This document shows, in pieces, positions 6,280 to 29,809 of a stretch of 64,000 nt of DNA (position 1 is its first letter; each line of letters opens with the position of its first letter). The notes under the pieces were generated by a model. That model was not told the origin of the DNA. It saw nothing but the letters and a program-made list of their open reading frames with translations, and made no database searches. A program made the position numbers and the translations under genes. Source of the DNA: Candidatus Eremiobacteria bacterium (GTDB taxonomy: Bacteria > Vulcanimicrobiota > Vulcanimicrobiia > Vulcanimicrobiales > Vulcanimicrobiaceae); NCBI GenBank assembly GCA_963758295.1, contig CAVWUU010000003.1, positions 64,001 to 128,000 of the forward strand, written 5' to 3'.

Positions 6280-8219
6280 ATGGTCATCGAAAGAGTGAAC
6301 TCCCCCGCCGATGTGAAGGCCCTCTCGCGCGAAGAACTCGACGTTCTCGCTCGCGAGATTCGCGATATGCTGGTCGTCACGTGTTCGCGCAACGGCGGAC
6401 ACTTGGCTCCGAACTTGGGCGTTGTCGAGCTTACGATTGCGTTGCACCGTATCCTCGATCTACCGAGCGACAAGCTGGTGTGGGACGTGAGCCATCAGGC
6501 CTACGTCCATAAAATTTTGACGGGCCGGCGCGACCGCTTTCACACGTTGCGCAAAGGCGGCGGCATTTCGGGCTTCGCGATGCGGAGCGAGTCGGAATAC
6601 GACATGTTTGGGGCCGGACACGCTTCCACGAGCGTCTCTTCAGCGCTCGGCATGGCAATTGCACGCGATCTGGCCGGACGCGAGGAAACGGTCGTTGCCG
6701 TTCTCGGCGACGGCGCGCTCACAGGCGGGCTTGCATACGAGGCGCTCAATAACGCCGGACAGCTGCACAGCAACTTCATCGTCATTCTCAACGACAACGA
6801 AATGTCGATCGCGCCCAACGTCGGCTCCATTGCGTCGTATCTTTCGGTATTACGCAGTAAGCCGCTTGCGAATTTCGTCCGCGAACGCGCGAAAGACGTG
6901 TTCCATCACATGCCGCTCGGCGGCGCGGCGCGCAAGGCTTTTGCCAGCGCCGAGATGGCGGCAATGCGCTTTGTATCGCCAACCGAAAAGACGGCCGTCA
7001 TTTTCGAAGAGCTCGGATTCCGCTACATGGGTCCGTTCGACGGTCACAACCTCGACGTCATGATCGACGCGTTGGAAACGGCGAAGGCGCTGGACGGCCC
7101 CGTACTCTTACACGTTCGCACGAAGAAGGGCAAGGGTTATGAGCCGGCCGAGCGCGATTCCCGCACGTTCCACGGCGTGGCGGTGCTTTCGACGTCGAAA
7201 ACGGCAAGCTCGAGGTAAAGCCGGATGCGCGCCCGACGTACTCCGACGTTTTTGCTGAAGCGTTAAATACCGTCGCCGAAAAAGACAAGCGTGTGATCGG
7301 CATAACCGCGGCAATGCCGGACGGTACGAAACTCTCGAAATTCGCCAAGAAGTTCCCCGAGCGGTTTTTTGACGTCGGGATCGCCGAAGCGCACGCGGTA
7401 TGCTTTGCCGCCGGTGCCGCCGCAACCGGACTGAAGCCGGTTTGCGCCATCTACTCGACCTTCTTGCAACGCGCGTACGATCAAGTCGTGCACGACGTTT
7501 GCGTGCAAAATCTTCCCGTAGTGTTTTGCATGGACCGCGCGGGACTCGTTGGTGACGACGGTCCGACGCATATGGGCCTCTACGACATCGCCTACATGCG
7601 CACGCTTCCGAATATGACGGTCATGGCGCCGCGCAACGAAGAAGAGATGTTGCCGATGCTGGAGCATGCGCTCAGCTTGAATGCGCCGGCAGCGATTCGT
7701 TATCCGCGCGGATCTTCCGGCGGACGCCATCGCGATACCGTCGCGCCCATCGTGCAAGGGAAAGCAGAAGTGCTTCGTGGCGGAAGCGGCGTGGCGATCT
7801 TGGCCCTCGGGAGCACGGTCGACATCGCGCTCGATGCCTACGACTTGCTCGCGAGCGGCGAGTTCGGACGTTCGGACCGTTTGCCGACCGTCGTGAACGC
7901 CCGTTTTGCCAAGCCGGTCGACGCGGCGTTAATCGAAGCGCTGAGCCGGGATCATTCGTTGATCTTGACGCTGGAAGAACATTCTCTCGCAGGCGGCTTC
8001 GGATCGGCGGTGGTAGAGGCCGCGTCGGACGCGCAATGGCCGGTCAAGATCGAGCGGGTGGGTATCGGCGACGTGCTCGTGCAGCACGATTCGCAGCCCG
8101 GCCAACGGGCGCTCTTCGGCCTTACGCCCCAAAAGATTGCCGAACGCGTCGCCGGCGTGCTTGGCGAGAACGACACCCCCGTGATACAATCCCGGGCGAT
8201 TTTTAGACAGGAGAACTAG
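6280..8219 (+). CDS. dxs: 1-deoxy-D-xylulose-5-phosphate synthase (apparent 1-nt deletion near 7180)
   Basis: GGHLAPNLG, GAGHASTS, GDGALTGG..NDNEMSI, IAEAHA, DRAGLVGDDGPTH; the two ORFs join as FHGVGGAFDVE. Confidence 0.96.
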
Positions 8220-11119: not shown

Positions 11120-11677
11120 ATGCAAAACGACATGAATTCATTGCCCACTCGCGGCAACGATGCCGTTGAAATTCTAGTAAACGATCACCAGACCATCAAG
11201 AGCCTGCTCAGTGCGCTCACTTCGGATTCGTTTCAACAGCAACAAGCGACGTTGGAAAGCTTGAAAGCTGCCCTGACGATCCACAACGCGACCGAAGAGA
11301 ACCTTGTCTATCCCGCATTACGCGAGGTCGCCGGAAAGAAATCAGAGTCGCAACACCTTTATCAGGAGACGGCCGAAGCCGACGTACTGGTCTTCCAGCT
11401 CGACACGATGATCAAAACCGGGAATATCGACGAATTCCAAACCACGGCGAAAAAACTGCAGAAGGCCGTGCTCGAACACATTGAAGATGAAGAGCAGAAA
11501 GCTTTTCCGGCGCTGCAACAACGCGCCGATGGAAGCCAAGCCCGGATGCTCACCGACGCGGTTCGGCAATTCCGCGGCTCGCTTCACATGAAGGGCCAAA
11601 TGCCCTCCACGCAGGGCCGCATGGAAACCGGAGAAATCGCCGACACGAAGACGCAGCAAGGCTCAAGGATGAAGTGA
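11120..11677 (+). CDS. Hemerythrin/HHE cation-binding domain protein
   Basis: DH...HNATEENLVYP...HIEDEEQKAFP. Confidence 0.85.
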   Translation: MQNDMNSLPTRGNDAVEILVNDHQTIKSLLSALTSDSFQQQQATLESLKAALTIHNATEENLVYPALREVAGKKSESQHLYQETAEADVLVFQLDTMIKTGNIDEFQTTAKKLQKAVLEHIEDEEQKAFPALQQRADGSQARMLTDAVRQFRGSLHMKGQMPSTQGRMETGEIADTKTQQGSRMK

Positions 11678-11713
11678 CCGATTCTTAGTCGGATGCTCTT
11701 TAACCGAAAAATG

Positions 11714-11744
11714 GCTCTCCGGTTTTTCGACCGGGGAGCTTTTT
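11714..11744 (+). terminator. Intrinsic terminator
   Basis: GCTCTCCGGT...ACCGGGGAGC followed by TTTTT. Confidence 0.7.
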
Positions 11745-11824
11745 ATCTCCAAACGCCGTTCGTGGAAGCATCCAAGTCCCACTTCGCCCGTCCCTAAAAG
11801 CCCAACGTCGCTTTACACGTTGCT

Positions 11825-11852
11825 AAATCCATACGAAGTCCCGCGCCGTTGG
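11825..11852 (+). promoter_or_regulatory. Predicted ECF promoter, copy 1
   Basis: AAATCC-N16-CGTTGG; same motif recurs at 14803, 17217 and 18782 (minus). Confidence 0.7.
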
Positions 11853-11928
11853 CGCAGTATCGGAATGGCGGATCGCCGGGTGTCGCGTCCAGCCGTATTC
11901 CGCGCAAGTCGTCTTTGGAGCAGCATCT

Positions 11929-12687
11929 ATGAAAACGCGAATACTTGGCGGTGTCGCGATGCTCGCATCTCTTGTTTTTGCCTTTGCGCTATATTCGAAC
12001 CATGCGGCAAAAGCTTCCGATCATCAGGACTCCCCAGTAACGCTGGGACGTCCCGGAGCAGACATCACCGACCCGTATATTTTTCCGGCACCCGATAATC
12101 CCAACAACGTCGTCCTCGTAATGAACGTTCATCCCCTCATTCCGAGCGGTCAAGGGCTTTCGACGTCTTTTGATCCCGGCGTTATCTATCAAATGAACTT
12201 CGACGGCGAATCAGAGAATACGAACGTCCCCGCGCAAGACGTCAACCAATCGTTCGTCATTCAGTTGGTGGCCGGCGCGCCCGGTGCCAATCAACCGATC
12301 TACATCAACGGTCCGGCACATCCCGCATCGCTGGGAAATGAGGCGACGCTGTTGCCGATGACCGGGCAAGGAACGATCAATAAATCGTTCACTGCCGGGC
12401 ACATGCAGATCTTTGCGGGTGCTCGAGAAGATCCGTTCTTCTTCGATCTCGCCCAATTTTTCAAGATTTTGCCCGATCGCATGGGCGGAAATCCCGCGCC
12501 GAGCTGTCTCCCCAAACTCGGCACGGGCTCTTGTTCCCAAGGTTTCAACAATCCCGGACAAGATTTTCTGGGCGGTTTCAACGTGCTTTCGATTGTCATC
12601 GAGATGCCGCGCGCCGACCTGATAGCGGGCTGCAATGGCCCCAAGATTGCATACTGGGTCACGACGTACACGTCGTCGGGAAGCTAG
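11929..12687 (+). CDS. DUF4331 family secreted protein, N-terminal-half type
   Basis: Signal peptide ending AKA, then SDHQDSP; DITD; FDP..IYQ; FAGAREDPFFFD; GFNVLSIVIE. Confidence 0.8.
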   Translation: MKTRILGGVAMLASLVFAFALYSNHAAKASDHQDSPVTLGRPGADITDPYIFPAPDNPNNVVLVMNVHPLIPSGQGLSTSFDPGVIYQMNFDGESENTNVPAQDVNQSFVIQLVAGAPGANQPIYINGPAHPASLGNEATLLPMTGQGTINKSFTAGHMQIFAGAREDPFFFDLAQFFKILPDRMGGNPAPSCLPKLGTGSCSQGFNNPGQDFLGGFNVLSIVIEMPRADLIAGCNGPKIAYWVTTYTSSGS

Positions 12688-12694
12688 GTGAATC

Positions 12695-13418
12695 GTGAAA
12701 TACGAATGGAACGCACGCGTATTAGTAATCCTAGGTGCATTACTGCTCGCCTCGTGCGGCGGCGGAGCCGGCGGACCCGCAAACAATAACGGCACGGGCC
12801 TCCCGGCTCCCGGCACGCCGTCGAATGCTAACCCCGAAATTTCCTCGGTCGGTGCGGGGCCGTACAAACAGCTGGATCGTTTGAATCGTCCGGCCGTAAA
12901 CGAAGTGTTTGCAACGTTTGCGGAGCATCAGGGGAACAATACCGATACGCCAAACGATGATGCGAAGATGCTTGGCCCGCAAATCATGGCGTTCATGACG
13001 AACGTCGGCGGCCGCAGCACCTCAATCGCATCGGTCGAGCGAGCCGTACTCACGCCTGACGTGCAAATAGCCGACTTGTCGGGAACGCAGCAACGCTTGC
13101 ATCGGCAAAGCCCCGGGGACGTGCAACAATTATCTTGGCGTCGAGACGAAGGGCGCAACCCAAATGCCGGCTGGATTGAAACCATTCGGTGGCCGTGCTC
13201 TTACCGACGATATCGTTTCCATCTCTCTCGGAACGATCTTCGGAAATACCATTCCGGCTCTGAAACTCGCGCCTGACGACAACAAGGAATCGGACGGACG
13301 CGCCGATGCGTCGTTTCCGTCCGGACATCGTCCCAACCTCACAACCGATAACGTCACCTGGCAAACGGCCCCGAAGCACTTCACCACGACGTTCCCCTAC
13401 CTTGGAGCACCGCGGTAA
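12695..13418 (+). CDS. DUF4331 C-terminal-half lipoprotein (frameshift near 13088)
   Basis: Lipobox LASC; QLDRLNRPAVNE; after the shift YLGVETKG, FGGRALTDD, FPYLGAP, matching the C-half of 17253..18530. Confidence 0.75.
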
Positions 13419-13420
13419 CA

Positions 13421-14776
13421 GTGCCCTTTCCGTTTCGCGGACGGTTAGCCGTAGCGGCGATTGCAGTTGGAGCAATCGCCGCATGGCCTCTCGTGAACGC
13501 CCATCGGCCCGCTGCTCCGGGAGCCTACGTTGCGCCCGTAGTTGCGGATTACGCGCAGCGGGACAAGACGATCGCCTTTTATGAGGCACGCGTTCGCGAA
13601 CATCCGCAAGACCAGATCAGCGCGAAGCTGCTCGCAGCGCAGTACATGCAGCGGTATCGGGAAGATCTAGACGTAGGCGATATCTTACGCGCCCTTCGCG
13701 AGGCTCAACTCTCCTTGAAGTTGCAGCCTCAAAACAATGCGGCGGCAAGCGAAATCGCTGCATCGGGCTATACGGCTCTCCATGAATTTAGAACGGCGTT
13801 GCGCTATGAAAAAGCGGCGCTTGCAGATCAGCCCGACGACTCCAACGCTCCCGCTCAAATGGCATCTCTCGAAATGGAGTTGGGGAATTATCAAGCCGCG
13901 TCGCGCGATTTGCGCCTCGCCTCGCACATTCGGAACACGTCGACCGTTATGGCCGTCCAAGCCCGTTACGATGAACTAACGGGGCGGCTTCCGGAAGCGC
14001 GCCGTTTAATTGCCGGAGCCTCCGCGCAGGTAGATGCGGTCGTCGACAACTCCGCTCAAGGGCGAGCTTGGTACCATTTTCGCGCGGGCGAACTGGCCTT
14101 CTCGGATGGCGACATAGACGAGGCGAAGGCGCAAGAGCGAACCGCACTTGCAGAGTTTCCCAATTTTGAAATGGCGTACCGGGCGCTGGCGCGCTTCTGC
14201 TGGGCGACAAAGGATTGGCCGTGCGCCTTGGATGCGGGATCGAAGGCTGCGGCGATCGTTCCCGAACCCGAAGCTCTAGGCTATGAAGCCGATGCGCAAG
14301 CCGCGCTTGGGCAGAGCGCCGAAGCCGACCGTACGCGCTCGCTGATTTTTGCCGTAGAAAAAATCGGCAACGCTTATCATCTGAACGATCGTCTTCTCGC
14401 CGTTTATTACTCAGAACATAAACTGCGCCAAGAAGACGCCTTACATATCGCCGAGCGGGAAGTGCGCGTTCGCGGAAACGAGATCTACGCTCAAGACACC
14501 CTTGCATGGGCGGCGGCGGCCGACGGAAAGTGGGGTCTAGCACGCCGCGCTGCTCGCAGCGCCACGCGATTCAACACGCAAGACCCGCGAATCGACTATC
14601 ACGCCGCGATTATCGCCCTGCATTTCGGCCACTCCGCCCAAGCACGGAGTCTCCTGAACGCGGCGCTGGCTAGAAATTCAGCCTTCGACCCGTTCTACGC
14701 AGACAGCGCGCGACTCACGCTGGCATCATTGCGTAGAAGCGAGCACGATCGTGTGCTTTTAACCGCTTGGCCGTAA
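13421..14776 (+). CDS. Tetratricopeptide repeat protein, exported
   Basis: N-terminal hydrophobic segment, repeated Ala-rich helical TPR units, DTLAWA..YHA motif. Confidence 0.8.
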   Translation: MPFPFRGRLAVAAIAVGAIAAWPLVNAHRPAAPGAYVAPVVADYAQRDKTIAFYEARVREHPQDQISAKLLAAQYMQRYREDLDVGDILRALREAQLSLKLQPQNNAAASEIAASGYTALHEFRTALRYEKAALADQPDDSNAPAQMASLEMELGNYQAASRDLRLASHIRNTSTVMAVQARYDELTGRLPEARRLIAGASAQVDAVVDNSAQGRAWYHFRAGELAFSDGDIDEAKAQERTALAEFPNFEMAYRALARFCWATKDWPCALDAGSKAAAIVPEPEALGYEADAQAALGQSAEADRTRSLIFAVEKIGNAYHLNDRLLAVYYSEHKLRQEDALHIAEREVRVRGNEIYAQDTLAWAAAADGKWGLARRAARSATRFNTQDPRIDYHAAIIALHFGHSAQARSLLNAALARNSAFDPFYADSARLTLASLRRSEHDRVLLTAWP

Positions 14777-14802
14777 GGAAGCAGAAGGTTCTTTGAAACA
14801 TA

Positions 14803-14830
14803 AAATCCATTGGCCCCAGTTCGCCGTTGA
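14803..14830 (+). promoter_or_regulatory. Predicted ECF promoter, copy 2
   Basis: AAATCC-N16-CGTTGA, upstream of GGAGGAG and TTG 14871. Confidence 0.7.
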
Positions 14831-14870
14831 AGCGTTAAAAGCTGAAGTAAGAAACGAACGGAGGAGCGGT

Positions 14871-16400
14871 TTGCGCGGACGGATTGCACGTTGGCTTTTC
14901 GGTATCGCGTTTGCGGTTGCGAATGCGACCGGCGTTGCCGCGGCACATCCGCTAGGAAACTTCACGATCAATCACCTCGTAAAAGTTCAGCCGTCCCAAA
15001 AGGCCCTAAAGCTGCGTTACGTGCTCGACATCGCGGAAATTCCAACTTTTCAGATTATGCGCGGGACCTCGGCCGGTGCGCTTTGGAATGCGGCGCAACT
15101 CGATGCGTGGGGGAGCTCTGAAGTTCCGGCGGTCACGAGTGGACTCCATGTTCAGGTAGACGGTTCTCCGGTGGTCCTGAGCCTTTTGAGGCGGAACGAG
15201 AAGCTGCGCCCGGGCGCGGGAGGCCTGCCGATTCTTTATTGGACCGCGGATTTCACGGCGCCTTTGGCACCCGGAACGCATCGCGTGAACATCGATGACG
15301 GCGTATACAACGACCACCGGATCGGGTGGAAAGATATCGTGGTTTCGCCCCAAACGGAACCCACGCACGAACTGCTTCGATATCCGAGCGCGCTGATCGG
15401 TTCGCCGCGCCACGTAACGAGCGTTTCATTCGACATTTCGGCCGGCGGGGCGGCGCAGTCGATCGTCGCTTCGACAGACGGCCTTCCCGACGTGAACGGA
15501 TCGGCCTCAATCGTTCGTTCCAACGCGCTTTCCGATATGTTTTCCAACGGAAATCGTACGCCGGTCTTCGTGCTGCTAACCGTTCTCGTCGCCTTTGGCT
15601 TAGGCGCGTTGCACGCGATAGAACCGGGTCATGGAAAAGCGCTCCTGGCGTTCACGCTCGTTGGATCGCGCGCTACCGTGAAGCAGGCAACAATCCTCGC
15701 AGCGTCCTTGACGTTCGCGCATACGGCCGGCGTATTGGTCTTGGGAATCGTGCTGTTCTTCGCTGCCGGCTTCGTTTCGGAATCGATCTATCCGTGGATT
15801 ACGTTGCTTTCGGGCGTTGCGGTGGCTATCATCGGAGCGCGAAATCTTTCGCGTTATTTGAGAGCGTGTAGCCTGCACGCTCACGCGGCCGGGCACCTTC
15901 ACTCTCACGGTTTTACCGACGACCACCATCATGGTGAAGAAGACCACGGACATTCGCACGCCGTTCCGGGAACGGGGCCGATTGATTTTAGAGGCGCAGT
16001 CGTGGCGGCGATGAGCGGCGGCGTTGCGCCTTGTCCGGCTGCAATCGTCGTGATGTTGGCAGCGTTGCGTCTGCACCAACTGGGATACGGCCTGTTGCTG
16101 ATCGTCGTCTTTAGCCTTGGTCTTGCCTCGGTACTCACGGCGCTTGGGATCGCCGTGGTGCACGGGTCGGCGTTCGTAACGAAAAGCGGGAAATTCGATC
16201 GCCTCGTTTCGGCGGGACCGTTGCTTTCGGCGGCCCTGATCTCGATAGTCGGCGCCGTTATGGTCGGCCAAGGATTCGTCGCTCAGGGCGTTCGAGCTCC
16301 TGTGTGGATTCTCGCCGGACTGGTCGCTTTGGCAATCGCCGGATACGGCCTTGCGCCGCAACACAATCACTCGCACGCGCCGGAGCAGCAGCCCGTATGA
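14871..16400 (+). CDS. RcnA/NicO-family Ni/Co transporter fused to an N-terminal extracytoplasmic domain
   Basis: Signal peptide ending AAA, then HPLGNF; LHAIEPGHGK; His-rich loop; PCPAA; SD GGAGGAG at 14860-14866 supports this start. Confidence 0.82.
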   Translation: MRGRIARWLFGIAFAVANATGVAAAHPLGNFTINHLVKVQPSQKALKLRYVLDIAEIPTFQIMRGTSAGALWNAAQLDAWGSSEVPAVTSGLHVQVDGSPVVLSLLRRNEKLRPGAGGLPILYWTADFTAPLAPGTHRVNIDDGVYNDHRIGWKDIVVSPQTEPTHELLRYPSALIGSPRHVTSVSFDISAGGAAQSIVASTDGLPDVNGSASIVRSNALSDMFSNGNRTPVFVLLTVLVAFGLGALHAIEPGHGKALLAFTLVGSRATVKQATILAASLTFAHTAGVLVLGIVLFFAAGFVSESIYPWITLLSGVAVAIIGARNLSRYLRACSLHAHAAGHLHSHGFTDDHHHGEEDHGHSHAVPGTGPIDFRGAVVAAMSGGVAPCPAAIVVMLAALRLHQLGYGLLLIVVFSLGLASVLTALGIAVVHGSAFVTKSGKFDRLVSAGPLLSAALISIVGAVMVGQGFVAQGVRAPVWILAGLVALAIAGYGLAPQHNHSHAPEQQPV

Positions 16401-17195
16401 TTTTTACGAATGCTTTTACGGTTTACGCTCTTGGGCTGCGGCATGGCGCTGATCCCGACCATTTGGCGGCGATCGATAACTTGACTCGTAACTCTCTGAC
16501 GCGCGCGCCGAAGATCTCGCGGTTCATAGGGGCGCTTTTTGCGGGCGGCCATAGCGTCATGGTTCTTGCCATTGCAGCGCTTGTGGGCTACCTTGGCACT
16601 CGGTTCGTCGCGCAAGGCGCTGCAATCGAGAAAGCCGGCACGTGGATTTCCATTGTCGTACTTATCGCCATTGCCGCTAATCAATATCCGGCAATTGCGG
16701 AAGGGGCAAAACGATCGCGTATTCGGCCTCAAAACGCGGCTAATGCCGCGCGCGTTACGCAACGGAACATCGCCCTGGCTGGCGGTGCCGGTCGGACTGC
16801 TTTTTGGATTCGGATTCGAAACCTCCAGTCAAATCGCGACTTATGCAGTGGCGTTTGCGGCTGACGCGGGCGTTGCGGGCGCGCTTGTCGTCGGCTCGAT
16901 GTTTTGCGCGGGGATGGTATGCACCGATACCCTGGATTCACTCTTCATCCATCGTATCGTCTCGTATCGGGCCGGGGACTTGCCGCGTCTTATGCGGGTT
17001 TGGATCTGGTCCGTAACGCTTTTCGCCATCGCGGTTGCGGCGTATGAGCTTGCGCAAGTTCTCGGTTGGAAGCCGCCCGTATCCGATCTAACCGTTAGCA
17101 TTGTCTTAGTCTCATCGCTGGCGGCCGTTTTTGCGTGGATTTTTATGGCAACGCGATCTTCCGCCGGTACCGAACCGCAATTGGAGCATACGTAA
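16397..17195 (+). CDS. HoxN/NixA (NiCoT) high-affinity Ni/Co permease (frameshift near 16679)
   Basis: GLRHGADPDHLAAIDN, FAGGHS and LFGFGFETSSQ NiCoT signatures. Confidence 0.88.
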
Positions 17196-17216
17196 AGCAA
17201 ATGGCGATAGGCGAGG

Positions 17217-17244
17217 AAATCCGCTGACGTCGCCTCCGCGTTGA
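17217..17244 (+). promoter_or_regulatory. Predicted ECF promoter, copy 3 (near-leaderless transcript)
   Basis: AAATCC-N16-CGTTGA ending 8 nt before ATG 17253. Confidence 0.7.
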
Positions 17245-17252
17245 ACGACATC

Positions 17253-18530
17253 ATGAAAAAATACTACTCGGCAATTTTAGGCGCCGCGGTAATGATGCTC
17301 CTCGGCGTCGTTGCGGCACTTTACGGCGCAACTTTCACCCGTGCTTCCGATCATCAGGATTCACCGCTCACGGTGGGGCGGCCGGGAGCCGATATCACCG
17401 ACGTTTTCCTTTTCCCGGCTGCAAATCCGAAAAACGTGGTGCTTGCGATGGACGTGCACCCGTTGATCCCTGCCGGACTGAGCGATTCCGCGGCCTTCGA
17501 TCCTTCGGTAATGTATCAATTCAAAATCGATACGGCGGGAAGCTACCGGGAAAATAAAGTTATTCAGTTTCGCGCGGTCGGCGCAGGGGCCGCGCAGTAC
17601 CTTCAAATGTACGGACCGGCGGCGCCTGTTATGGCCGGAACAGCATCGCGCTGGGTAGGCTCGCCGCAAACGATCGCATTGAACCGTGTAACGCGATTGC
17701 CCGGCGGCATCAGCGTTTTTGCCGGTCCTCGACGGGAACCGTTTTATTTCGATTTGGCGCAGTTCTTCAAGATCGTGCCGGATAGAAACTTCAAAAGTCA
17801 GCCGCATCCGCCGATTGCTACGGCCAATTGTTTTCGAAAGCCGGATGTCGATTTCTTCCGAAATTACAACGTCCTTGCGCTGGCAGTGGAATTGCCGCGG
17901 ACCATGTTGGCTGCGCCGAGCGGCAAACTTGGGGTAATTCACCTGTATACTACGACCTCGCTTTCGCAGGGCTCGGGCGAATACGAACAGGTGGAACGTT
18001 TAGGGCGTCCGGCCATCAAAGAAACCTTCGAAACGTTCTCTGATCACGATGCCAGCAATCGCCGTTCGCCGTGGAATGACTCGGAGTTATCGCATTCGAT
18101 CGTCGCGTTTATGACGGCGCCTTCGCCGAATGGCGCGGGACGATCGCGTGAACTTGCCTCTGCGGTAGAAAAAGTGCTGATACCGGACGAACTCACGGCC
18201 GACCTTAGCGCACCCGGGCCGGCTGCCTATTTGGCTGTCGAAACGAAGGGCAAAAGCGCGCTCCCGACCGGCATCGTTCGTGTCGTACCGGAGGCCGGGC
18301 TTAAAGGCCTCAAAAAGTCGATTGCCAACAGGTCGCGCGATTTCGGCGGTCGAGATCTTTCGAGCCCCGTGATCGATCTTTCGCTCGGCGTAATTTTTGG
18401 TTCGCTCGGTCAAAAAGTTGGACTGGCAAAAGATGACGGGAAAGAAACCGCCTGTCTCACGAGCGACAACGTCGATGCAGGCTCTCGAGGCATTACTACC
18501 TCATTTCCGTATTACGGAGCGCCGATCTAA
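17253..18530 (+). CDS. Full-length DUF4331 family secreted protein
   Basis: Signal peptide ending TRA, then SDHQDSP; DITD; FAGPRREPFYFD; QVERLGRPAIKE; FGGR; FPYYGAP. Confidence 0.85.
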   Translation: MKKYYSAILGAAVMMLLGVVAALYGATFTRASDHQDSPLTVGRPGADITDVFLFPAANPKNVVLAMDVHPLIPAGLSDSAAFDPSVMYQFKIDTAGSYRENKVIQFRAVGAGAAQYLQMYGPAAPVMAGTASRWVGSPQTIALNRVTRLPGGISVFAGPRREPFYFDLAQFFKIVPDRNFKSQPHPPIATANCFRKPDVDFFRNYNVLALAVELPRTMLAAPSGKLGVIHLYTTTSLSQGSGEYEQVERLGRPAIKETFETFSDHDASNRRSPWNDSELSHSIVAFMTAPSPNGAGRSRELASAVEKVLIPDELTADLSAPGPAAYLAVETKGKSALPTGIVRVVPEAGLKGLKKSIANRSRDFGGRDLSSPVIDLSLGVIFGSLGQKVGLAKDDGKETACLTSDNVDAGSRGITTSFPYYGAPI

Positions 18531-18539
18531 GCGCGCATT

Positions 18540-18746
18540 TTAGCGGCTGCGCCGCAGTGCGCTCCCTTGCGATCGCAGCCGCCGCGCGATTTCGTCGTCG
18601 TCGAAGCGCTCGAGAAAGTCCTCGATGGCTGCTTCGGCGAGCGCCGACACGGAAACGGCATGCGTTGCTTTGAACGCGGTAAGCCGGCCGGCAAGGCGAT
18701 GTGGGATCGTGATCGTTAGACGTTTGAGGGACACCCGGGCTCTCAT
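18540..18746 (-). CDS. Small ribbon-helix-helix (CopG/MetJ-like) DNA-binding protein
   Basis: KRLTITIP strand, helix, SVSALAEAAIEDFL; preceded by the ECF promoter motif. Confidence 0.65.
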   Translation of the reverse strand: MRARVSLKRLTITIPHRLAGRLTAFKATHAVSVSALAEAAIEDFLERFDDDEIARRLRSQGSALRRSR

Positions 18747-18754
18747 TACGAGTC

Positions 18755-18782
18755 TTAACGAACGGCGTCGTCTTTCAGATTT
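18755..18782 (-). promoter_or_regulatory. Predicted ECF promoter, copy 4
   Basis: Minus strand AAATCT-N16-CGTTAA ending 8 nt before ATG 18746. Confidence 0.6.
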
Positions 18783-18819
18783 ACTTGCTAATCATACGAA
18801 ACCCGGGTATTAAAACTCG

Positions 18820-19362
18820 GTGAGCGCCGTTGCGGAGATCAAAGACGACTTCGAGCTTTTCTACCGGCAATATCGGCCGCTCGTTTATGCCGTCGCTTTC
18901 AAAATCGTCCGAAACGCGCTTGACGCTGAAGACACCGTGCAAACGGTCTTCCTTAAAGTATGGAGCCGGCCCGGCGCATATCGCGGAGGAAACATCGAGA
19001 GCTGGCTCACTACGGTTACGAAGAACGCTTCGCTCGATTGCGTGCGACAATCGTGGCGTGTGAGCCCGTTCGCCTCTGCCGATGGGTATGCTGGCCGCCT
19101 TTCGCCGGGCGAAGACCTCCGGACCCGCGACTGCCGGGCGGCGGAAGATGAGGCCGTGCATCGCATCTCGGTCGCCGCGGTAATGAATGCCCTTGCGGAC
19201 CTCTGTCCCGAACAACGCGCCGCGATTGTAGCGGCCTTTGTGAAACAACAAACCCACCGGGGCATAGCCGACGGATCTTGTTTACCGCTCGGAACCGTGA
19301 AGACGCGCATTCGTTCGGGACTCGCGAAGCTGCGCCGTCGCTTCTCCGAAGAAGCGCCATAA
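18820..19362 (+). CDS. ECF sigma factor (SigK-like)
   Basis: Region 2 DAEDTVQTVFLKVW..SWL..N..D; region 4 LPLGTVKTRIRSGL. Confidence 0.92.
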   Translation: MSAVAEIKDDFELFYRQYRPLVYAVAFKIVRNALDAEDTVQTVFLKVWSRPGAYRGGNIESWLTTVTKNASLDCVRQSWRVSPFASADGYAGRLSPGEDLRTRDCRAAEDEAVHRISVAAVMNALADLCPEQRAAIVAAFVKQQTHRGIADGSCLPLGTVKTRIRSGLAKLRRRFSEEAP

Positions 19363-19368
19363 AAAGCG

Positions 19369-19393
19369 AAGGCGATCGCTCTGCGATCGCCTT
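19369..19393. terminator. Bidirectional intrinsic terminator
   Basis: Perfect 11-bp stem AAGGCGATCGC-TCT-GCGATCGCCTT between convergent genes. Confidence 0.8.
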
Positions 19394-19418
19394 TCACTAT
19401 CCCGACGGTGTTGTGGCG

Positions 19419-19934
19419 TTAGGCCTTCTTGCGACGGCCGCCGCGCGCGGCTTTTTTACGGCCTCCTGCGGCTTTACGCGTCGTTGCCTTTTTGCGTCCG
19501 CCGGTTGCCTTACGCGTCGTCTTCTTGCGTCCGCCGGTGGACTTTTTACGTCCGCCTGCCGCTTTTTTGCGTCCTGCGGTTTTCTTGCGTCCGCCGGTCG
19601 CCTTTTTGCGGCCGCCCGTCGACTTCTTGCGTCCTGCGGTCTTCTTTCTTCCGCCGGCTGCCTTTTTGCGTCCGCCGGTCGACTTCTTGCGTCCTGCGGT
19701 TTTTTTGCGTCCGCCGGTCGCCTTTTTCCGTCCGCCGGCGGCTTTCTTACGTCCGCCTGCGGCTTTACGTCCAGCGGTTTTCTTGCGTGCGCCGGTGGCT
19801 TTTTTACGGCCGCCCGTCGATTTGCGTCCTGCGGTTTTCTTACGTCCGCCGGCTGATTTGCGGCGGCTCGATTTGCGGCGCGTTCCGGATTCTTCGGCCA
19901 TCGTGCCACCGTTCATCATGGTATCGGAGTCCAT
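19419..19934 (-). CDS. Histone H1/Hc2-like basic repeat protein (13 GGRKK units)
   Basis: SD GAGGAGG 5 nt before ATG, sigma70 promoter upstream, terminator downstream; body made only of G,R,K,A,T,S. Confidence 0.8.
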   Translation of the reverse strand: MDSDTMMNGGTMAEESGTRRKSSRRKSAGGRKKTAGRKSTGGRKKATGARKKTAGRKAAGGRKKAAGGRKKATGGRKKTAGRKKSTGGRKKAAGGRKKTAGRKKSTGGRKKATGGRKKTAGRKKAAGGRKKSTGGRKKTTRKATGGRKKATTRKAAGGRKKAARGGRRKKA

Positions 19935-20196: not shown

Positions 20197-20226
20197 TTGC
20201 CCGGGATTGACGGCCGGGAGTATACT
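20197..20226 (+). promoter_or_regulatory. Sigma70-type promoter of topA (probably leaderless)
   Basis: TTGCCC-N18-TATACT, 7 nt before GTG 20234, no SD. Confidence 0.6.
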
Positions 20227-20233
20227 AAGCCCC

Positions 20234-22367
20234 GTGAAAAAGCCCCTGATCATCGTCGAGTCGCCGACCAAGGCTCGGACGATCAAGAAGTTTCTCCCCG
20301 CGCGGTACGTCGTGAAGGCGTCCGTCGGTCACGTCCGCGATCTGCCGAAGAGTACGCTGGGTGTCGACGTGGAGCACGACTTCACGCCGAAGTATCTAAC
20401 GATCAAAGGCAAAGGCGACATTATCAAGGAGCTCAAGAGCGCGGTCAAAGGCGCGAGCGAAGTGTACCTCGCCACCGACCCCGATCGCGAAGGCGAAGCG
20501 ATTGCGTGGCACCTAGCCGAGCTGCTCAAGCTCGAGAACCCCAAGCGCATCGAGCTCCACGAGATTACTAAGGATGCCGCGCTCGCCGCTTTGAAGGACG
20601 CGCACCACATCGACATGGATCGCGTGAACGCGCAACAGGCGCGCCGCATCCTGGACCGTCTTGTTGGATACAAGATCTCGCCGCTGCTGTGGGCTAAGGT
20701 TCGCGGCGGCTTGTCGGCCGGTCGCGTGCAGTCGGTGGCGGTGCGGCTCATCGTGGATCGGGAACGCGAAATCGGCGCCTTCGTTCCAAAAGAGTATTGG
20801 ACCGTTACGGCTCAGTTGGCGAGAGACACGAAGAGCGATCTGGTGTTCCTTGCCGACCTGGTGGCCTTCAAGGGCGAGAAATACGAGATCCGTACAAAGG
20901 AAGAAACGGATCGGGTTCTAGAGGCGATCGATGGTGCACCCTTTACAATCGACTCGATCAAACGCCGAGAAGTAAAGCGAAATGCGCCGGCGCCCTTCAC
21001 GACTTCGACGCTCCAGCAAGAGGCCTCGCGCAAACTGCGAATCCGCGTGCGGCGCGCCATGCAAATCGCACAGGCGCTGTACGAAGGCGTAGATCTCGGC
21101 GGCTCCGAGGGCACCGTCGGTTTGATTACGTACATGCGTACCGACTCGACGCGCATCAGCGATCAGGCGCGGGAAGCGGCTCGCGAATTCATCGTCGACA
21201 CGTACGGCGAAGCGTTTCACGGCGGACGCCAACATAAGGTAAAAGAAGGCGCACAGGACGCGCACGAAGCGATCCGGCCTACCTCGGTTTTGCACACTCC
21301 GGAAAAAGTCGCGCACGTCCTCAAGCGCGACGAACTGCGTCTCTACACGATGATTTGGGAGCGGTTCGTCTCCTCGCAGATGGCCCCGGCGGTCTTCGAT
21401 CAGACGACTGTGGAAATCAAGGTCGCGCGATTACGGTTTCCGCGCGACCGGTAGCGTCATGAAGTTCGCGGGTTTCACCAAGGTGTACGAAGAGGGCCGC
21501 GATGAGGACGGCAAACAGCGCGGACGCGTACGGCTGCCGGAACTCACCGAGGGCGAAGTGCTCGACGTCCGTGCGATCGACCCGAAGCAGCACTTCACCG
21601 AACCCCCGCCGCGCTTCACCGAAGCCACGCTCGTCAAAGCGCTTGAAGAGAACGGCATCGGCCGGCCGTCGACGTACTCGACGATCGTCGATACGATCCA
21701 AGCTCGCGGCTACGTAACGCAAGAAGAACGGCGCTTCAAACCCACCGACATCGGCATCGCCGTGAACGATTTGCTGGCCGAGCATTTCAAAGACATCGTC
21801 GATCTCAAGTTCACGGCGGGCATGGAAGGCGACCTCGATAAAGTAGCCGAGGGCCACGAAGACTGGGTCGGGATTCTGCGCAGCTTCTACGGACCGTTTG
21901 CGACCGAACTCGAAGAAGCCGAGAAGAAACTTCCCAAGCTCGAAGTCAAAGACGAGCCGACCGACGAGATCTGCCAGAATTGCGCACGGCCCATGGTCAT
22001 CAAGACCGGACGTTTCGGCAAATTCATCTCGTGCACGGGCTATCCCGAATGCAAGACGACCAAACCGATCGTCAAAGACACGGGAGCGAAATGCCCCAAA
22101 GACGGCGGCATGATCGTGGAACGCCGGTCCAAGAAGGGACGCACGTTCTACGGCTGCGCAAATTATCCGAACTGCGACTTCGTGTCGTGGGATCGCGTAA
22201 TCCCCGAGCCCTGTCCGGTGTGCGGAAGCTACGTCGTCGCAAAGACGCGGCGCGGCGGCAACGTGCATCTGGAGTGTGCGGCGGATAAGGAACACGACGT
22301 GTCGTCGCTCGTGAAGCCCGCGCCGGGCGAAGAACCGACGGACGACCGGGAACTCGCCGAAGTTTGA
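20234..22367 (+). CDS. topA: DNA topoisomerase I with C-terminal zinc ribbons (frameshift near 21424)
   Basis: IVESPTKA, ATDPDREGE, SAGRVQS, ITYMRTDS, DAHEAIRPT, GIGRPSTY, C4 zinc ribbons. Confidence 0.97.
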
Positions 22368-26501: not shown

Positions 26502-26978
26502 ATGAATATCCGAACCCTTTTCCTAGGACTGGCACTCGGAAGCGGAGTGCTCCTCGCCGCATGTGGCGGCGGAACGACCGTAACGGGTCCGACACCTGGT
26601 CCGACGTGCGGACCGGCCAACATTCAATCGGAGCTGATTTATCCGCAGCCCAGTGCAACCGGGGTTACGGACAATCTTGCGCAGATTGTGATTGCCGTAA
26701 GCTCCCCGTTGCCGATCAATACGTTCAACCTTGCGTTGACCGCCTTGAACAACGGCGGTGGAACGGCTCTAACGGCGAACCCGCTCGCCCAGATTTCGGC
26801 GAGCCAGCTTCCGGCCGGGTCTGCAACGGCGACCATTCCGAACCCGACGTACGAAGCAGTGAATCTCATCGCGAATCTTCCGTCGGCTACTCAGATCCAA
26901 ACCGCCATCAACGATCCCGGCAACCCTAACAACTGCACGCCCCAAAATATTCCAAACGGCACTTTCACTACCCAGTAG
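26502..26978 (+). CDS. Hypothetical lipoprotein
   Basis: Lipobox LAAC-GGG; P/T/N-rich; two further Cys. Confidence 0.75.
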   Translation: MNIRTLFLGLALGSGVLLAACGGGTTVTGPTPGPTCGPANIQSELIYPQPSATGVTDNLAQIVIAVSSPLPINTFNLALTALNNGGGTALTANPLAQISASQLPAGSATATIPNPTYEAVNLIANLPSATQIQTAINDPGNPNNCTPQNIPNGTFTTQ

Positions 26979-27640: not shown

Positions 27641-28477
27641 GTGAAGACGCTTTTTTTTGGCACCAGCGACTTTGCCGTGCCGAGCTTGCACGTGCTCGCT
27701 GCGCGCACGTCGCTCTTTGGCGTCGTAACGCAACCCGACCGGCCTGCCGGCCGAGGGCACAAGCTCATGCCGACGCCCGTGAAAGCGGCGGCGCGCGATT
27801 TGGGCGTTCGCGTCTTCGAGCCGCTAAAACTCAAAGTGTTGGCCGAAGAGCTTGCCGGTGAATCGTTCGATCTCTTCGCACTGGCGTCGTACGGCCGGAT
27901 CTTACCGCAAGCCCTATTGGATCTTCCGCGTCTTGGAGCGTTAAACGTGCACCCGTCGCTGTTGCCGAAGTATCGCGGGGCGACGCCGATTCAAAGCGCC
28001 TTGCGTAACGGCGATGCGGAAACCGGCGTGAGCATCATGTTTATGGATGCCGGCATGGACACCGGGCCGCTGCTGATTCAGGAGCGGGTGGGCATCGAAG
28101 CATCGGACGACTACGGCACGTTGCACGACCGTCTCGCGTTTTACGGCGGCGAGCTGCTCGGCGAAGCACTGGATCGGGCGGCCGCCGGTGAATTGAAATC
28201 CCAGCCGCAACTTGGGGAACCCTCGATCACGCGCCCCATTGGAAAGGACGATTTGAACATCGATTGGACGTGGCCGCCGCACAAAGTGCTGGACACGATT
28301 CGCGCATTTGCGCCGCAGCCGGGAGCCCGCGCGACGATCGACGGCGAGACGGTGAAGGTGTTGCGCGCGCATCTCGACGGCGAGCGCGTCGTAATCGACG
28401 AGTTGATCGCGCCGAATCGCGGACGCATGACCGGTGAAGCCTACGAGCAATCGCGCCGCGCGCGTGAACGCGCATGA
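27641..28477 (+). CDS. fmt: Methionyl-tRNA formyltransferase (compact C-terminal domain)
   Basis: FFGTSDFA, VTQPDRPAGRG, NVHPSLLPKYRGATPI, MDTG. Confidence 0.95.
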   Translation: MKTLFFGTSDFAVPSLHVLAARTSLFGVVTQPDRPAGRGHKLMPTPVKAAARDLGVRVFEPLKLKVLAEELAGESFDLFALASYGRILPQALLDLPRLGALNVHPSLLPKYRGATPIQSALRNGDAETGVSIMFMDAGMDTGPLLIQERVGIEASDDYGTLHDRLAFYGGELLGEALDRAAAGELKSQPQLGEPSITRPIGKDDLNIDWTWPPHKVLDTIRAFAPQPGARATIDGETVKVLRAHLDGERVVIDELIAPNRGRMTGEAYEQSRRARERA

Positions 28478-29809
28478 CCGGCGCACGCGACGTAGCCCTC
28501 CAAACGGTGCGCGATGTATTTCCGGCGCCACCGCAAAGCGTCGAGCGCGGCGCTCAAGAAGCGCTCGATTATCGCGCGCAAAAAGTAAGTCTCGAGCCGC
28601 GCGATCGTGCGTTTGCCACCGAACTTGCCTACGGCGCCATCAAGATGCGTCGCACGCTAGATTGGTATTTGCAACCTTTTATCGGCGGACGCGAACAGCC
28701 GCTGCCGCCCGTGATTCGTGAAGTCTTGCGTCTGGCGGTTTACGAACTCGTTTACACGCGTCCGGACGTGCACGCCACGGTCTTTGAATGGGTCAACGTG
28801 GCGAAACGTTACGGGCACCGCGGCGTCGCAAATCTCGTAAACGCCGTGTTACGTTCGTTCTTGCGCGATACGCCGCTGGAACCGTCACGCGAAAGTTTCG
28901 AAAGTGAAGAAGAGTACCTAGGAACGCGCTATTCGCTTCCCACGTGGCTGGTTCGCCAATGGCAAACCGTCTTCGGTGAACGCGCAGAGACGATTTGCGA
29001 AGCCGTGAACGCGCCGGCCGCAACCGCCATCACCGTAAACGGTTGTAAGACCACCGCGTTCGACCTGCTCGAGCGCTTGCGCAGCGATAAAGTGGAAGTC
29101 GAGCCGTCGACGTGGGTAGGTGAATCGCTGCTGGTCGGTGACGGCGGCTACGTCCGCCGCAAAGAGCCCTGCGGCAAAAGGCGAATGGTGGATTCAATCC
29201 GAGAGTTCGGCCATGCCGGTCGACATCATGAATCCGCAACCCGGTGAGGCCGTCCTCGACGTCTGCAGCGGGCGCGGCAATAAGGCGATGCAAACCGCTT
29301 CGCGCATGCAGGCCGAGGGCACGCTGACGTGTATCGAACGCGAAGAAAAGAAGGCCTCCGTCCTCCAAACGCGGATGCAAGAAGCCGGCTTATCCGCGGC
29401 GGTCATCGTCGGCGACGCCGCACAACCGGTGCTGCCCGAAGGCAAACGCTTCGACCGCGTCCTCATCGACGCGCCGTGTTCCGGCATCGGAGTCATCGGA
29501 CGGCACCCCGAAGCGCGCTGGAAGAAGCAGCCGGGCGACGGCGAACGTCTCGCCGGGACGCAGCGCGCAATTCTGGAAAGCATTGCCTCTGCGGTCTTCG
29601 AGGGCGGTGCGCTAATTTATGCGGTGTGCTCCACCGACCCGAGAGAAACGGTCGAAGTGGTCGACGCGTTTTTGGCAGGGCAGCAGTTCGAACGCGGGCT
29701 CATCCCCGCGTCTTACGAAGCGTTCCTCACCGAAAGCGGCGACGTTTTGATTCCCCCGGGGATCGAAGGACGGGACGGATTCTACATCGCGAGGCTGGAG
29801 CGCCGCTAA
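28474..29809 (+). CDS. rsmB: 16S rRNA m5C967 methyltransferase RsmB/Sun (frameshift near 29165)
   Basis: NusB-like N-domain (LVNAVLR), LDVCSGRGNK, DAPCSG, YAVCS, DGFYIARL. Confidence 0.92.

Follow-up and report, generated by a model that had tools for sequence, protein, structure and literature searches.

Extracytoplasmic function (ECF) sigma factors of the ECF18, ECF19, and ECF214 groups, the clade of the SigK-RskA systems, are the closest described counterparts of the regulators considered here. In the supplement to the ECF survey of Casas-Pastor et al. (2021, PMC7826278), the ECF18 promoter motif has TGCATCTT at -35 and CGTA at -10, the ECF19 motif has ATC at -35 and CG at -10, DUF4331 is listed in the neighborhoods of ECF18s13 and ECF214s1, and RpoP (ECF18s4) is placed in Ni/Co resistance. 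DUF4331 (PF14224) was absent from the literature searched save for this one supplement, which may hold further mentions; the family comprises 1,601 representatives at an E value of ≤0.001 in a 50%-identity library. On the transport side, the Ang-1 domain, which is fused to HupE/UreJ-2 permeases, binds Cu2+ with a dissociation constant (Kd) of 74 nM and Ni2+ with a Kd of 220 nM via its N-terminal His (Franco Cairo et al. 2025, PMC12537917). The locus described here lies in a 64,000-nt stretch (the window) of contig CAVWUU010000003.1 from a Candidatus Eremiobacteria bacterium of the family Vulcanimicrobiaceae (assembly GCA_963758295.1; 3.03 Mb in 6 contigs, 82% complete; window C3:64001-128000). 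It holds genes for three DUF4331 proteins, a TPR protein, two Ni/Co-type permeases, a ribbon-helix-helix (RHH) protein, and an ECF sigma factor, designated sigma B (Table 1). The four putative sites P1 to P4 that head these units are very probably ECF promoters of a SigK/RskA-like family, and they belong to a distant second sigma factor, designated sigma A, at least as much as to the neighboring sigma B.

Table 1. Coordinates of the features of the cluster, as positions in the window
Feature	Position	Strand	Description
P1, promoter-like site	AAATCC 11825-11830, N16, CGTTGG 11847-11852	+	Heads DUF4331N, DUF4331C, and TPR
DUF4331N	11929..12687	+	Signal peptide, then SDHQDSP; Pfam DUF4331, E = 6.7e-29
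DUF4331C	12695..13276	+	Own lipoprotein-type signal, LLLASC; Pfam E = 1.7e-06, profile positions 247-304
TPR protein	13421..14776	+	N-terminal hydrophobic segment; weak Pfam TPR matches
P2, promoter-like site	AAATCC 14803-14808, N16, CGTTGA 14825-14830	+	Heads the two permease genes
Permease NicOL	14871..16400	+	509 aa; signal peptide, periplasmic domain (HPLGNFTINH), NicO/RcnA-like membrane domain, His-rich loop
NiCoT-like permease	16304..17195	+	RHGADPDHLAAIDN; FGFGFETSSQIA; split over two frames, break near 16676-16715
P3, promoter-like site	AAATCC 17217-17222, N16, CGTTGA 17239-17244	+	8 nt 5' of the DUF4331F ATG
DUF4331F	17253..18530	+	Full length; signal peptide, then SDHQDSP; Pfam E = 2.8e-41
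RHH protein	18540..18746	-	68 aa; ribbon-helix-helix
P4, promoter-like site	AAATCT 18782-18777, N16, CGTTAA 18760-18755	-	8 nt 5' of the RHH ATG (18746)
Region just upstream of sigma B	18785..18813	+	TTGCTA-N17-TATTAA, housekeeping-like, read by eye; candidate sigma B promoter/operator
Sigma B, ECF sigma factor	18820..19362	+	Sigma70_r2 and Sigma70_r4 only (Pfam); about 180 aa
Hairpin, G+C-rich	19369..19393		Between the convergent sigma B and basic-repeat genes; likely terminator

Position and conservation of the promoter-like sites

An earlier note on this DNA, made from the letters alone, had proposed four copies of an ECF promoter motif, each intergenic and directly upstream of a transcription unit. 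Checking the sequence confirmed all four, which are oriented toward the next gene and have a spacer of exactly 16 nt. P1 lies 76 nt before the ATG of DUF4331N (11929) and 3' of a terminator-like hairpin (11713-11740). P2 falls between the TPR stop codon (14776) and the likely permease start, a TTG at 14871 behind GGAGGA; the permease open reading frame (ORF) as listed, from TTG 14793, would include P2, and the N termini of orthologs favor the start at 14871. P3 is located between the stop codon at 17195 and the ATG at 17253. As both P3 and P4 end 8 nt before a start codon, with no Shine-Dalgarno sequence in between, their messages would be leaderless or nearly so if these sites are promoters. 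Among sequencing runs compared with 11700-19400, no RNA run matched, and one soil DNA run shared 0.06 of the words.

The genome scan for AAATCY-N16-CGTT that the note had put forward as a check points the same way. With the 16-nt spacer, 27 matches were identified in the 3.03 Mb, compared with 14, 13, 13, and 17 for spacers of 14, 15, 17, and 18 nt, respectively. The window alone contains 7 matches, with 0.29 expected from shuffled sequences (largest count, 3; 0 of 100 shuffles reached 7), and the presence of four copies within 7 kb is approximately 100-fold above the genome background.

Orthologous clusters were fetched from relatives, cited here by G and L numbers, and the window proteins were mapped onto them. 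In these relatives ATCC-N16-CGTT was found upstream of DUF4331, permease, or TPR units, with the first half extended to AATCC in the same family and to TCATCC in the sister family of the class. A first matrix was made from 25 of the relatives' sites at 12 loci, none of them from this genome. Outside the core selected for, in these sites ATCC is preceded by A or C (never by G or T) and followed by a purine, and CGTT is not followed by C; the consensus is (A/C)ATC(C/T)R-N15-CGTT(G/A), in which 16 nt separate ATCY and CGTT. When both strands of the genome were scored (approximately 6 million positions), the top three positions were P2 (24.2), P1 (21.6), and P3 (21.3), followed at rank 4 by a position inside an amidohydrolase gene (20.9). 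Using a combined matrix of 39 relatives' sites, made up of cluster sites and sigma A sites, the promoter of sigma A itself ranked first in this genome (21.5), P2 third, the intergenic site C1:607195 fourth, P3 fifth, P1 sixth, and P4 eighth (19.3), with ranks 2 and 7 being intragenic.

An independent test drew on 50 loci from public genomes, of which 8 were removed because their DNA was that of training loci, leaving 42 loci (552,440 bp) from relatives that are kin and not independent of each other. It was found that 30 of the 32 positions scoring above 16 lie on the same strand as, and ≤300 nt upstream of, a cluster or sigma gene, in 24 of the 42 loci. The gene behind these 30 sites encodes the permease (n = 17, making the P2 position the most frequent), DUF4331F (n = 7), DUF4331N (n = 2), or TPR, NiCoT, RHH, or sigma A (n = 1 each). 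Moving the -10 half by -2, -1, +1, +2, or +3 nt gave 4, 2, 5, 2, and 4 matches in the same loci, of which 0, 0, 2, 0, and 1, respectively, were upstream. Across all 50 loci there were 50 matches, 46 of them upstream, in 32 loci. The loci are mostly labeled as Eremiobacterota/Vulcanimicrobiota metagenome-assembled genomes, with a few labeled Binatus, Limnocylindrales, Proteobacteria, or Planctomycetota; the motif was seen in three of the latter as well. By these sequence comparisons the four sites are real and the motif is conserved across the whole phylum.

P1 to P4 are bipartite, have one fixed spacing, and carry ATC in the -35 and CG(T) in the -10, as do promoters of the ECF18/19/214 type, and the earlier reading of them as SigK-related ECF promoters agrees with the ECF18 and ECF19 motifs given in the supplement (PMC7826278). 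The presence of an RHH gene in the cluster would be in keeping with the repeated element being an operator for a DNA-binding regulator, either RHH or another, rather than a promoter. However, the element is asymmetric and bipartite with a single spacing, is always oriented to the downstream gene, twice ends 8 nt before a start codon, occurs in many genomes and loci that have no RHH gene, matches the published ECF18/19 halves (PMC7826278 supplement), and precedes sigma/anti-sigma operons. An operator is thus a very improbable reading, and ECF promoters remain the preferred one.

Three further matches in the window that the note does not list, at 26796-26771 (-), 28830 (+), and 32770 (+), lie within or antisense to plus-strand genes (the ORF upstream of def, rsmB, and ftsW) and were taken as chance, being intragenic or antisense and scoring <13 on the first matrix. 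The copy at 26771-26796 (-), gaaATCTg..CGTTag, is antisense in the ORF between hslU and def and ranks 15 on the combined matrix; it is either a chance match or an antisense promoter. In a class-level relative (L034), a single DUF4331F gene is preceded by two near-identical copies of the motif with their flanks (9597 and 9716, minus strand), spaced 119 nt apart. Among further regulon candidates in this genome only C1:607195-607218 (+), gcaATCTg..CGTTac, stands out. It is situated 54 nt before a gene (C1:607272-607898) for a secreted 208-aa protein without a Pfam family, a possible additional member of the regulon. Other candidates, namely msrA (C4:154852-, 15.7), an ECF sigma gene (C2:189280+), and several non-Pfam genes, had background-level scores and were not counted. 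Elsewhere among the relatives, one copy of the motif stands ahead of a canonical NiCoT gene (G004, flagged unpublished) and another ahead of the gene of a TonB-dependent receptor (G010).

The motif and the sigma A/RskA pair

A tblastn search of the genome identified sigma A at C1:547124-547660, on a different contig from the cluster. Sigma A is 41 to 44% identical to the sigma B of the window and 51% identical to the sigma factor of G052, it is followed by an RskA_C gene, and acaATCTg-N15-CGTTat lies 68 nt before its start. Matches of the sigma A type (E ≤1e-20) are present in 51 of 61 relatives surveyed, with partners in the relatives that contain zf-HC2 and RskA_C; the copy in this genome has RskA_C. 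ATC[CT]-N16-CGT was found ≤260 nt upstream in 17 of 21 sigma A loci (20 relatives and this genome), in 15 cases at -43 to -69. The remaining four loci are all from the sister family; in them CGTTCGTT-like -10 strings occur at the border of the sequence that was searched, so that their -35 may lie just beyond it. In three relatives (G010, G012, and G052) a sigma gene adjacent to the cluster is followed by a zf-HC2 and RskA_C anti-sigma gene, and in the first two the motif is directly upstream. As the motif stands upstream of sigma A in 17 of 21 loci, it was assigned to the sigma A/RskA pair, and on this positional evidence it is the autoregulatory motif of a SigK-like system. The motif would be ancestral to this widespread type of sigma factor.

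Synteny allowed the order of events to be addressed. The locus in G003, a genome of the same genus whose sigma A is 97% identical to that of this genome, consists of an ABC ATPase gene, a motif copy scoring 20.2, DUF4331N (89%), DUF4331C, TPR, a second motif copy scoring 19.9, the permease (80%), NiCoT (90%), the basic-repeat gene, and topA, with approximately 100 nt replacing DUF4331F, RHH, and sigma B of the window. The locus in G002 is similar and keeps the P2 equivalent. Sigma B is absent at the syntenic site of G003, and none was found in that genome with the sigma B query. Since the G003 locus keeps P1 and P2 without sigma B, the comparison indicates that these two sites predate sigma B; where sigma B is lacking, only sigma A would serve them, if any sigma factor of this family does. 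Sigma A probably reads P1 and P2.

Sigma B, the RHH protein, and a conserved box

Besides this genome (G000), just three carry orthologs of sigma B (44 to 51% identity, E ≤1e-36), namely G004, G021, and G017, which makes 4 of the 61 surveyed; all four also carry sigma A. The public set added L072 as a fifth locus with sigma B. Sigma B adjoins the cluster in 5 of the 5 loci that have it, and in G004 (flagged unpublished) it is the last gene of a motif-headed operon. No anti-sigma gene is located downstream of sigma B in the window, where a convergent GGRKK-repeat gene (19934-19419) and then topA are found instead, and an RskA-like anti-sigma gene at +1 is absent also from the four other sigma B loci.

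In a maximum-likelihood tree of 33 sigma factors (midpoint root), the five sigma B sequences group together with 99/99 support, on a long branch (0.87), and the sigma A of the sister family falls outside the group made by sigma B and the sigma A of the family. Sigma B keeps the sigma-2 motifs FLKVWS and RGGN.E.WL, has the sigma-4 recognition helix PLGT(V/I)KTRIR.GL in common with sigma A, and shows 43 invariant columns across the five sequences. Against the NCBIfam SigK model it scores 79.7 bits, short of the cut-off of 226, and SigE-type models score alike; among PDB sequences, SigK (4NQW, E = 3.8e-8) is a weaker match than SigE (E = 3e-14). We propose that sigma B is a fast-evolving paralogue which arrived together with DUF4331F and usually with the RHH gene. 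It seems fairly likely that sigma B reads P1/P2-type promoters too, because of its near-identical recognition helix, its constant place beside the cluster, and the operon in G004.

The earlier note had the adjacent sigma factor driving the whole cluster. SigK-type promoters do stand ahead of the units, but the adjacent sigma factor as driver of the whole cluster is not supported as stated: the motif stands upstream of sigma A in 17 of 21 loci, and sigma B, with neither motif nor anti-sigma, occurs in 4 of 61 genomes and is missing at the G003 site. Control of P1 to P4 by sigma B alone, with sigma A/RskA serving only itself or other targets here, would be consistent with the adjacency in 5 of 5 loci and with the -10 of P1 to P3 (CGTTG versus CGTTA at most sigma A promoters of relatives), which could mark two sub-specificities. 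It is nevertheless quite unlikely, as genomes with only sigma A (G010 and G012, and G003 at the syntenic site) carry the same AATCC-N16-CGTTG before the cluster, the best combined-matrix match in the genome is the promoter of sigma A itself, and no motif copy is found upstream of sigma B here.

Conversely, sigma A alone might read P1 to P4, with sigma B drifted, a decoy, or inactive, and placed beside the cluster by co-transfer with DUF4331F. The long branch, the low identity to sigma A (only 41 to 44%), the lack of an autoregulatory motif and an anti-sigma factor, and the greater age of P1 and P2 would all fit. Set against this are the retained FLKVWS, RGGN, and PLGT(V/I)KTRIR.GL sequences, the 43 invariant columns, which argue for purifying selection, and the place of sigma B in the motif-headed operon of G004; moreover, no other conserved bipartite motif was seen near sigma B, although there is a conserved box at 18789-18809. 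We consider it unlikely that sigma A acts alone, and prefer a reading in which both sigma factors use the sites.

Two more ECF sigma genes (C2:189312-189926 and C1 near 37300) have zf-HC2/RskA_N-type anti-sigma neighbors, and one of them is next to a DUF4142/DUF305 gene. Both pairs exist in this genome and the C2 sigma ORF is preceded, at a distance of 9 nt, by a weak motif-like site (14.5), so that either might be supposed to read the sites. However, these sigma factors share 30 to 34% identity with sigma B and are placed by the tree outside the group that sigma A and sigma B make up, the C2 site has a background score, and neither pair is linked to the cluster in any locus seen; their involvement is extremely improbable. 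Reading by sigma A and sigma B remains the preferred explanation.

In 4 of the 5 loci sigma B has the RHH gene as a neighbor, which is divergent in this genome, G021, and L072, whereas in G017 it lies upstream with the same orientation; in G004, DUF4331F and sigma B are present with no RHH match. Each of the three divergent RHH genes has an ECF motif 8 to 13 nt before its ATG, and P4-equivalent sites precede the RHH orthologs in L032 and L072. These two orthologs score 28.9 and 31.2 bits, respectively, and the window copy 14.2 bits, against the Pfam RHH_1 cut-off of 20.5; no PDB sequence matched the RHH protein at E ≤10. Upstream of sigma B, TTGCTA-N17-TATTAA is not among the sites listed by a consensus sigma-70 scan. 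Overlapping it is a 21-nt box, TAATCA.ACG-N3-C..GGGTA (18789-18809), which does not vary between three genomes (the window, L032, and L072), the sigma B proteins of which are only 45% identical. Repression of sigma B by RHH is put forward tentatively, at rather less than even chances.

Proteins encoded behind the promoter-like sites

The earlier description of these genes as a Ni-Co transport regulon holds in part. A conserved DUF4331/TPR/NicO cluster headed by the four sites is present, as are Ni/Co-type transporter signatures; its control by a single sigma factor is not borne out. Most related loci have TPR along with DUF4331 and the permease. The three DUF4331 proteins score 142.6, 101.8, and 28.0 bits, all above the PF14224 gathering cut-off of 27, and the structure model of DUF4331F has a pLDDT (predicted local distance difference test) of 89. 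DUF4331N ends in TAG and DUF4331C starts 8 nt later (12685-12697), a split that recurs in many relatives, often with TAG, beside fused full-length forms. After the signal segment, a residue A, G, or S followed by (S/A)-D-H-x-(D/E)-x-P was found in 31 of 37 aligned DUF4331 homologs and in 90 of 150 representatives. An X-D-H mature end, with His at position 3, is an amino-terminal Cu(II)- and Ni(II)-binding (ATCUN)-type site, which DUF4331 proteins would possess if cleaved there.

The signal peptide of NicOL ends in A-x-A and is followed by HPLGNFT.NH, in which the His (H26) is invariant in 33 of 33 orthologs. The N-domain model (pLDDT 85) has a sole Foldseek match at E ≤0.001, the Cu-bound Ang-1 domain 9GCE, at 12 to 13% sequence identity; a profile of the N-domain against PDB sequences returned nothing but frataxin at E = 0.55. 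On the basis of this model the N-domain has an Ang-1-like fold. The membrane part of NicOL contains HAIEPGHGK and a loop with 13 His in 32 residues. In the motif naming of NiCoT (HoxN/NixA) and RcnA transporters, HAIEPGHGK and the His-rich loop are RcnA-like. The NiCoT-like permease has the H-x4-D-H motif (RHGADPDHLAAIDN) and FGFGFETSS; it scores 50.6 with TIGR00802 against a cut-off of 333, for the C-terminal piece only, the gene being split, and its orthologs in relatives are unbroken.

The direction of transport can be graded from these features. A TonB-dependent receptor and a canonical NiCoT behind the motif in relatives favor uptake, and the RcnA-like features favor export. Uptake or scavenging has about an even chance, export or buffering is the less likely outcome, and some other function is less likely again. 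CbiX was not found in the genome and three B12-binding domains were found; the search for the Ni superoxide dismutase family (PF09055) was void, as its control matched nowhere.

Several other features border the cluster. A hemerythrin gene (11120-11677) with its own terminator lies between the ABC ATPase gene and P1; it has no motif upstream and is missing at the G003 locus. On the other side, the gene at 19419-19934 (-) encodes a very basic, histone H1-like protein of 171 aa consisting almost entirely of GGRKK(A/T) repeats, with no Pfam match, and it is kept next to topA in G002, G003, and G004. Five genes are split into two frames that overlap or adjoin each other, namely topA (20207-22367), dxs (6280-8219), rsmB (28474-29809), the NiCoT gene (16304-17195), and rskA (C1:546342-547123). 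As many core genes are broken in this 6-contig, 82%-complete assembly, the splits are likely indel errors rather than decay. Genes were taken from a codon-usage caller, which is crude and missed the 68-aa RHH gene, and greedy longest-ORF lists miscalled several genes in the G+C-rich DNA.

Proposed model

We propose a model in which P1 to P4 are SigK/RskA-like promoters of a metal module, read by sigma A and sigma B and subject to RHH feedback; as a whole it is somewhat more likely than not. P1 to P4 would switch on four units, DUF4331N/C with TPR, NicOL with the NiCoT-like permease, DUF4331F, and RHH. Sigma A, freed from the single-pass RskA by an envelope signal, would read P1 to P4 together with its own promoter. 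Sigma B would be made from the housekeeping-type promoter that overlaps the conserved box and would read the same promoters, and RHH, made from P4, would bind the box at 18789-18809 and thereby exert feedback on sigma B. The most likely task of the module is the extracytoplasmic capture of Ni(II), Cu(II), or Co(II) and its delivery to the permeases. The sites with their conservation, placement, and orientation, the two types of sigma factor, the synteny, and the fold match are observations, whereas the pairing of sigma factors with sites, the part played by RHH, the metal, and the transport direction are inferred.

A number of points weigh against this model. For the promoters, P4 is weak on the first matrix (14.1, rank approximately 42, with 44 genome sites scoring >14) because it has ATCT; 7 of the 25 training sites of that matrix come from genomes flagged unpublished (G004, G033, and G048); and the matrix core was set by the picking pattern, ATC[CT]-N16-CGT upstream of cluster genes, so that only the ranks, flanks, and spacer controls are independent. 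For the sigma factors, the absence of an ECF motif upstream of sigma B in this genome is unusual for an ECF sigma factor that reads its own regulon. The sigma B clade is sister to the sigma A clade of the family at only 87/87 support. The helix ahead of the recognition helix is not the same in sigma B as in sigma A, and the sigma B branch is long, so the specificity of sigma B may have shifted. The G003 genome is only 61% complete and might carry sigma B at another place. In the genome described here, rskA (C1:546342-547123) is frameshifted inside its H-x3-C-x2-C motif; this may be an assembly error or real, and no conclusion was drawn from the broken gene. For the metal module, the DUF4331F model has no clear solved structural relative, signal-peptide cleavage sites were predicted by eye, and both NicOL and the NiCoT-like permease score below NCBIfam cut-offs. 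RcnA-type proteins are exporters in Escherichia coli, and neither the [NiFe]-hydrogenase large subunit (PF00374) nor urease alpha (PF00449) was found in the 82%-complete genome.

A more far-reaching version is speculative and, in our estimation, doubtful. Here, sigma B and RHH would constitute a second, anti-sigma-free switch for a SigK-type regulon, coupled to a metal relay from the DUF4331 X-D-H end through TPR to the angler domain of NicOL. If the second switch is true, the target of RHH would be either the box that overlies the sigma B promoter or the sigma B protein, RHH would in this way set the level of free sigma, and the metal module could fire without the RskA membrane sensor. If the relay is true, secreted DUF4331 proteins with X-D-H (ATCUN-like) tips would catch Ni(II)/Cu(II) and, with TPR, hand it over to a NicO-type permease, an arrangement not yet described in print.

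The conserved promoter and gene order tie DUF4331 to Ni/Co-type permeases and an Ang-1-like domain in Eremiobacterota and some other phyla, which gives this family a testable role in trace-metal capture. The paired sigma factors constitute a natural case of how a duplicated ECF sigma factor shares or splits a regulon, and of whether a small RHH protein can replace an anti-sigma factor. For annotation, the motif predicts the regulon straight from sequence in uncultured genomes.

Comparison with known systems

The SigK-RskA systems of the ECF18/19/214 clade, as presented in the survey supplement (PMC7826278), resemble sigma A in having a single-pass zf-HC2 and RskA_C anti-sigma factor at +1 and in autoregulation, and they share with the motif described here the ATC in the -35, the CG(T) in the -10, and DUF4331 neighbors. 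In contrast to these systems, sigma B has neither an anti-sigma factor nor an autoregulatory site, the cargo is a metal module and not of the MPT70/MPT83 type, neither sigma A nor sigma B reaches the NCBIfam SigK cut-off, and the phylum is Eremiobacterota/Vulcanimicrobiota.

A transcription factor in place of, or besides, an anti-sigma factor is seen in LitS with the MerR-type LitR (ECF19s4) and in ECF203 with TetR, according to the main text and supplement of the same survey (PMC7826278). Like these, sigma B lacks a nearby anti-sigma gene, has a conserved small neighbor of a DNA-binding type, and has a candidate promoter that is not of its own type. Unlike them, its neighbor is an RHH protein (CopG type) of 44 to 79 aa with a putative role, which is itself encoded behind an ECF motif.

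The anglerase-permeases, in which Ang-1/Ang-2 is joined to HupE/UreJ-2 (PMC12537917), are similar to NicOL in their signal peptide, invariant N-terminal His, and beta-sandwich periplasmic domain fused to a metal permease. The membrane part of NicOL differs in being NicO/RcnA-like (Pfam NicO; NCBIfam RcnA-like PRK10019), and Pfam gave no HupE/UreJ-2 (PF13795) match in NicOL at E ≤0.01. PMC12537917 makes no mention of DUF4331, TPR, NicO, or sigma factors. Compared with NiCoT and RcnA transporters, NicOL has an extra periplasmic domain and the NiCoT-like gene is frameshift-split in the assembly; an importer type (NiCoT) and an exporter type (RcnA) are found here in one operon.

CnrH/CnrYX of Cupriavidus metallidurans is a Ni/Co-sensing ECF system with a resistance-nodulation-division (RND) efflux pump as its cargo. 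It and RpoP tie an ECF sigma factor to envelope Ni/Co handling, as is the case here. The anti-sigma and sensor types of CnrH/CnrYX differ from those at this locus, where the cargo is instead composed of DUF4331, TPR, and permease.

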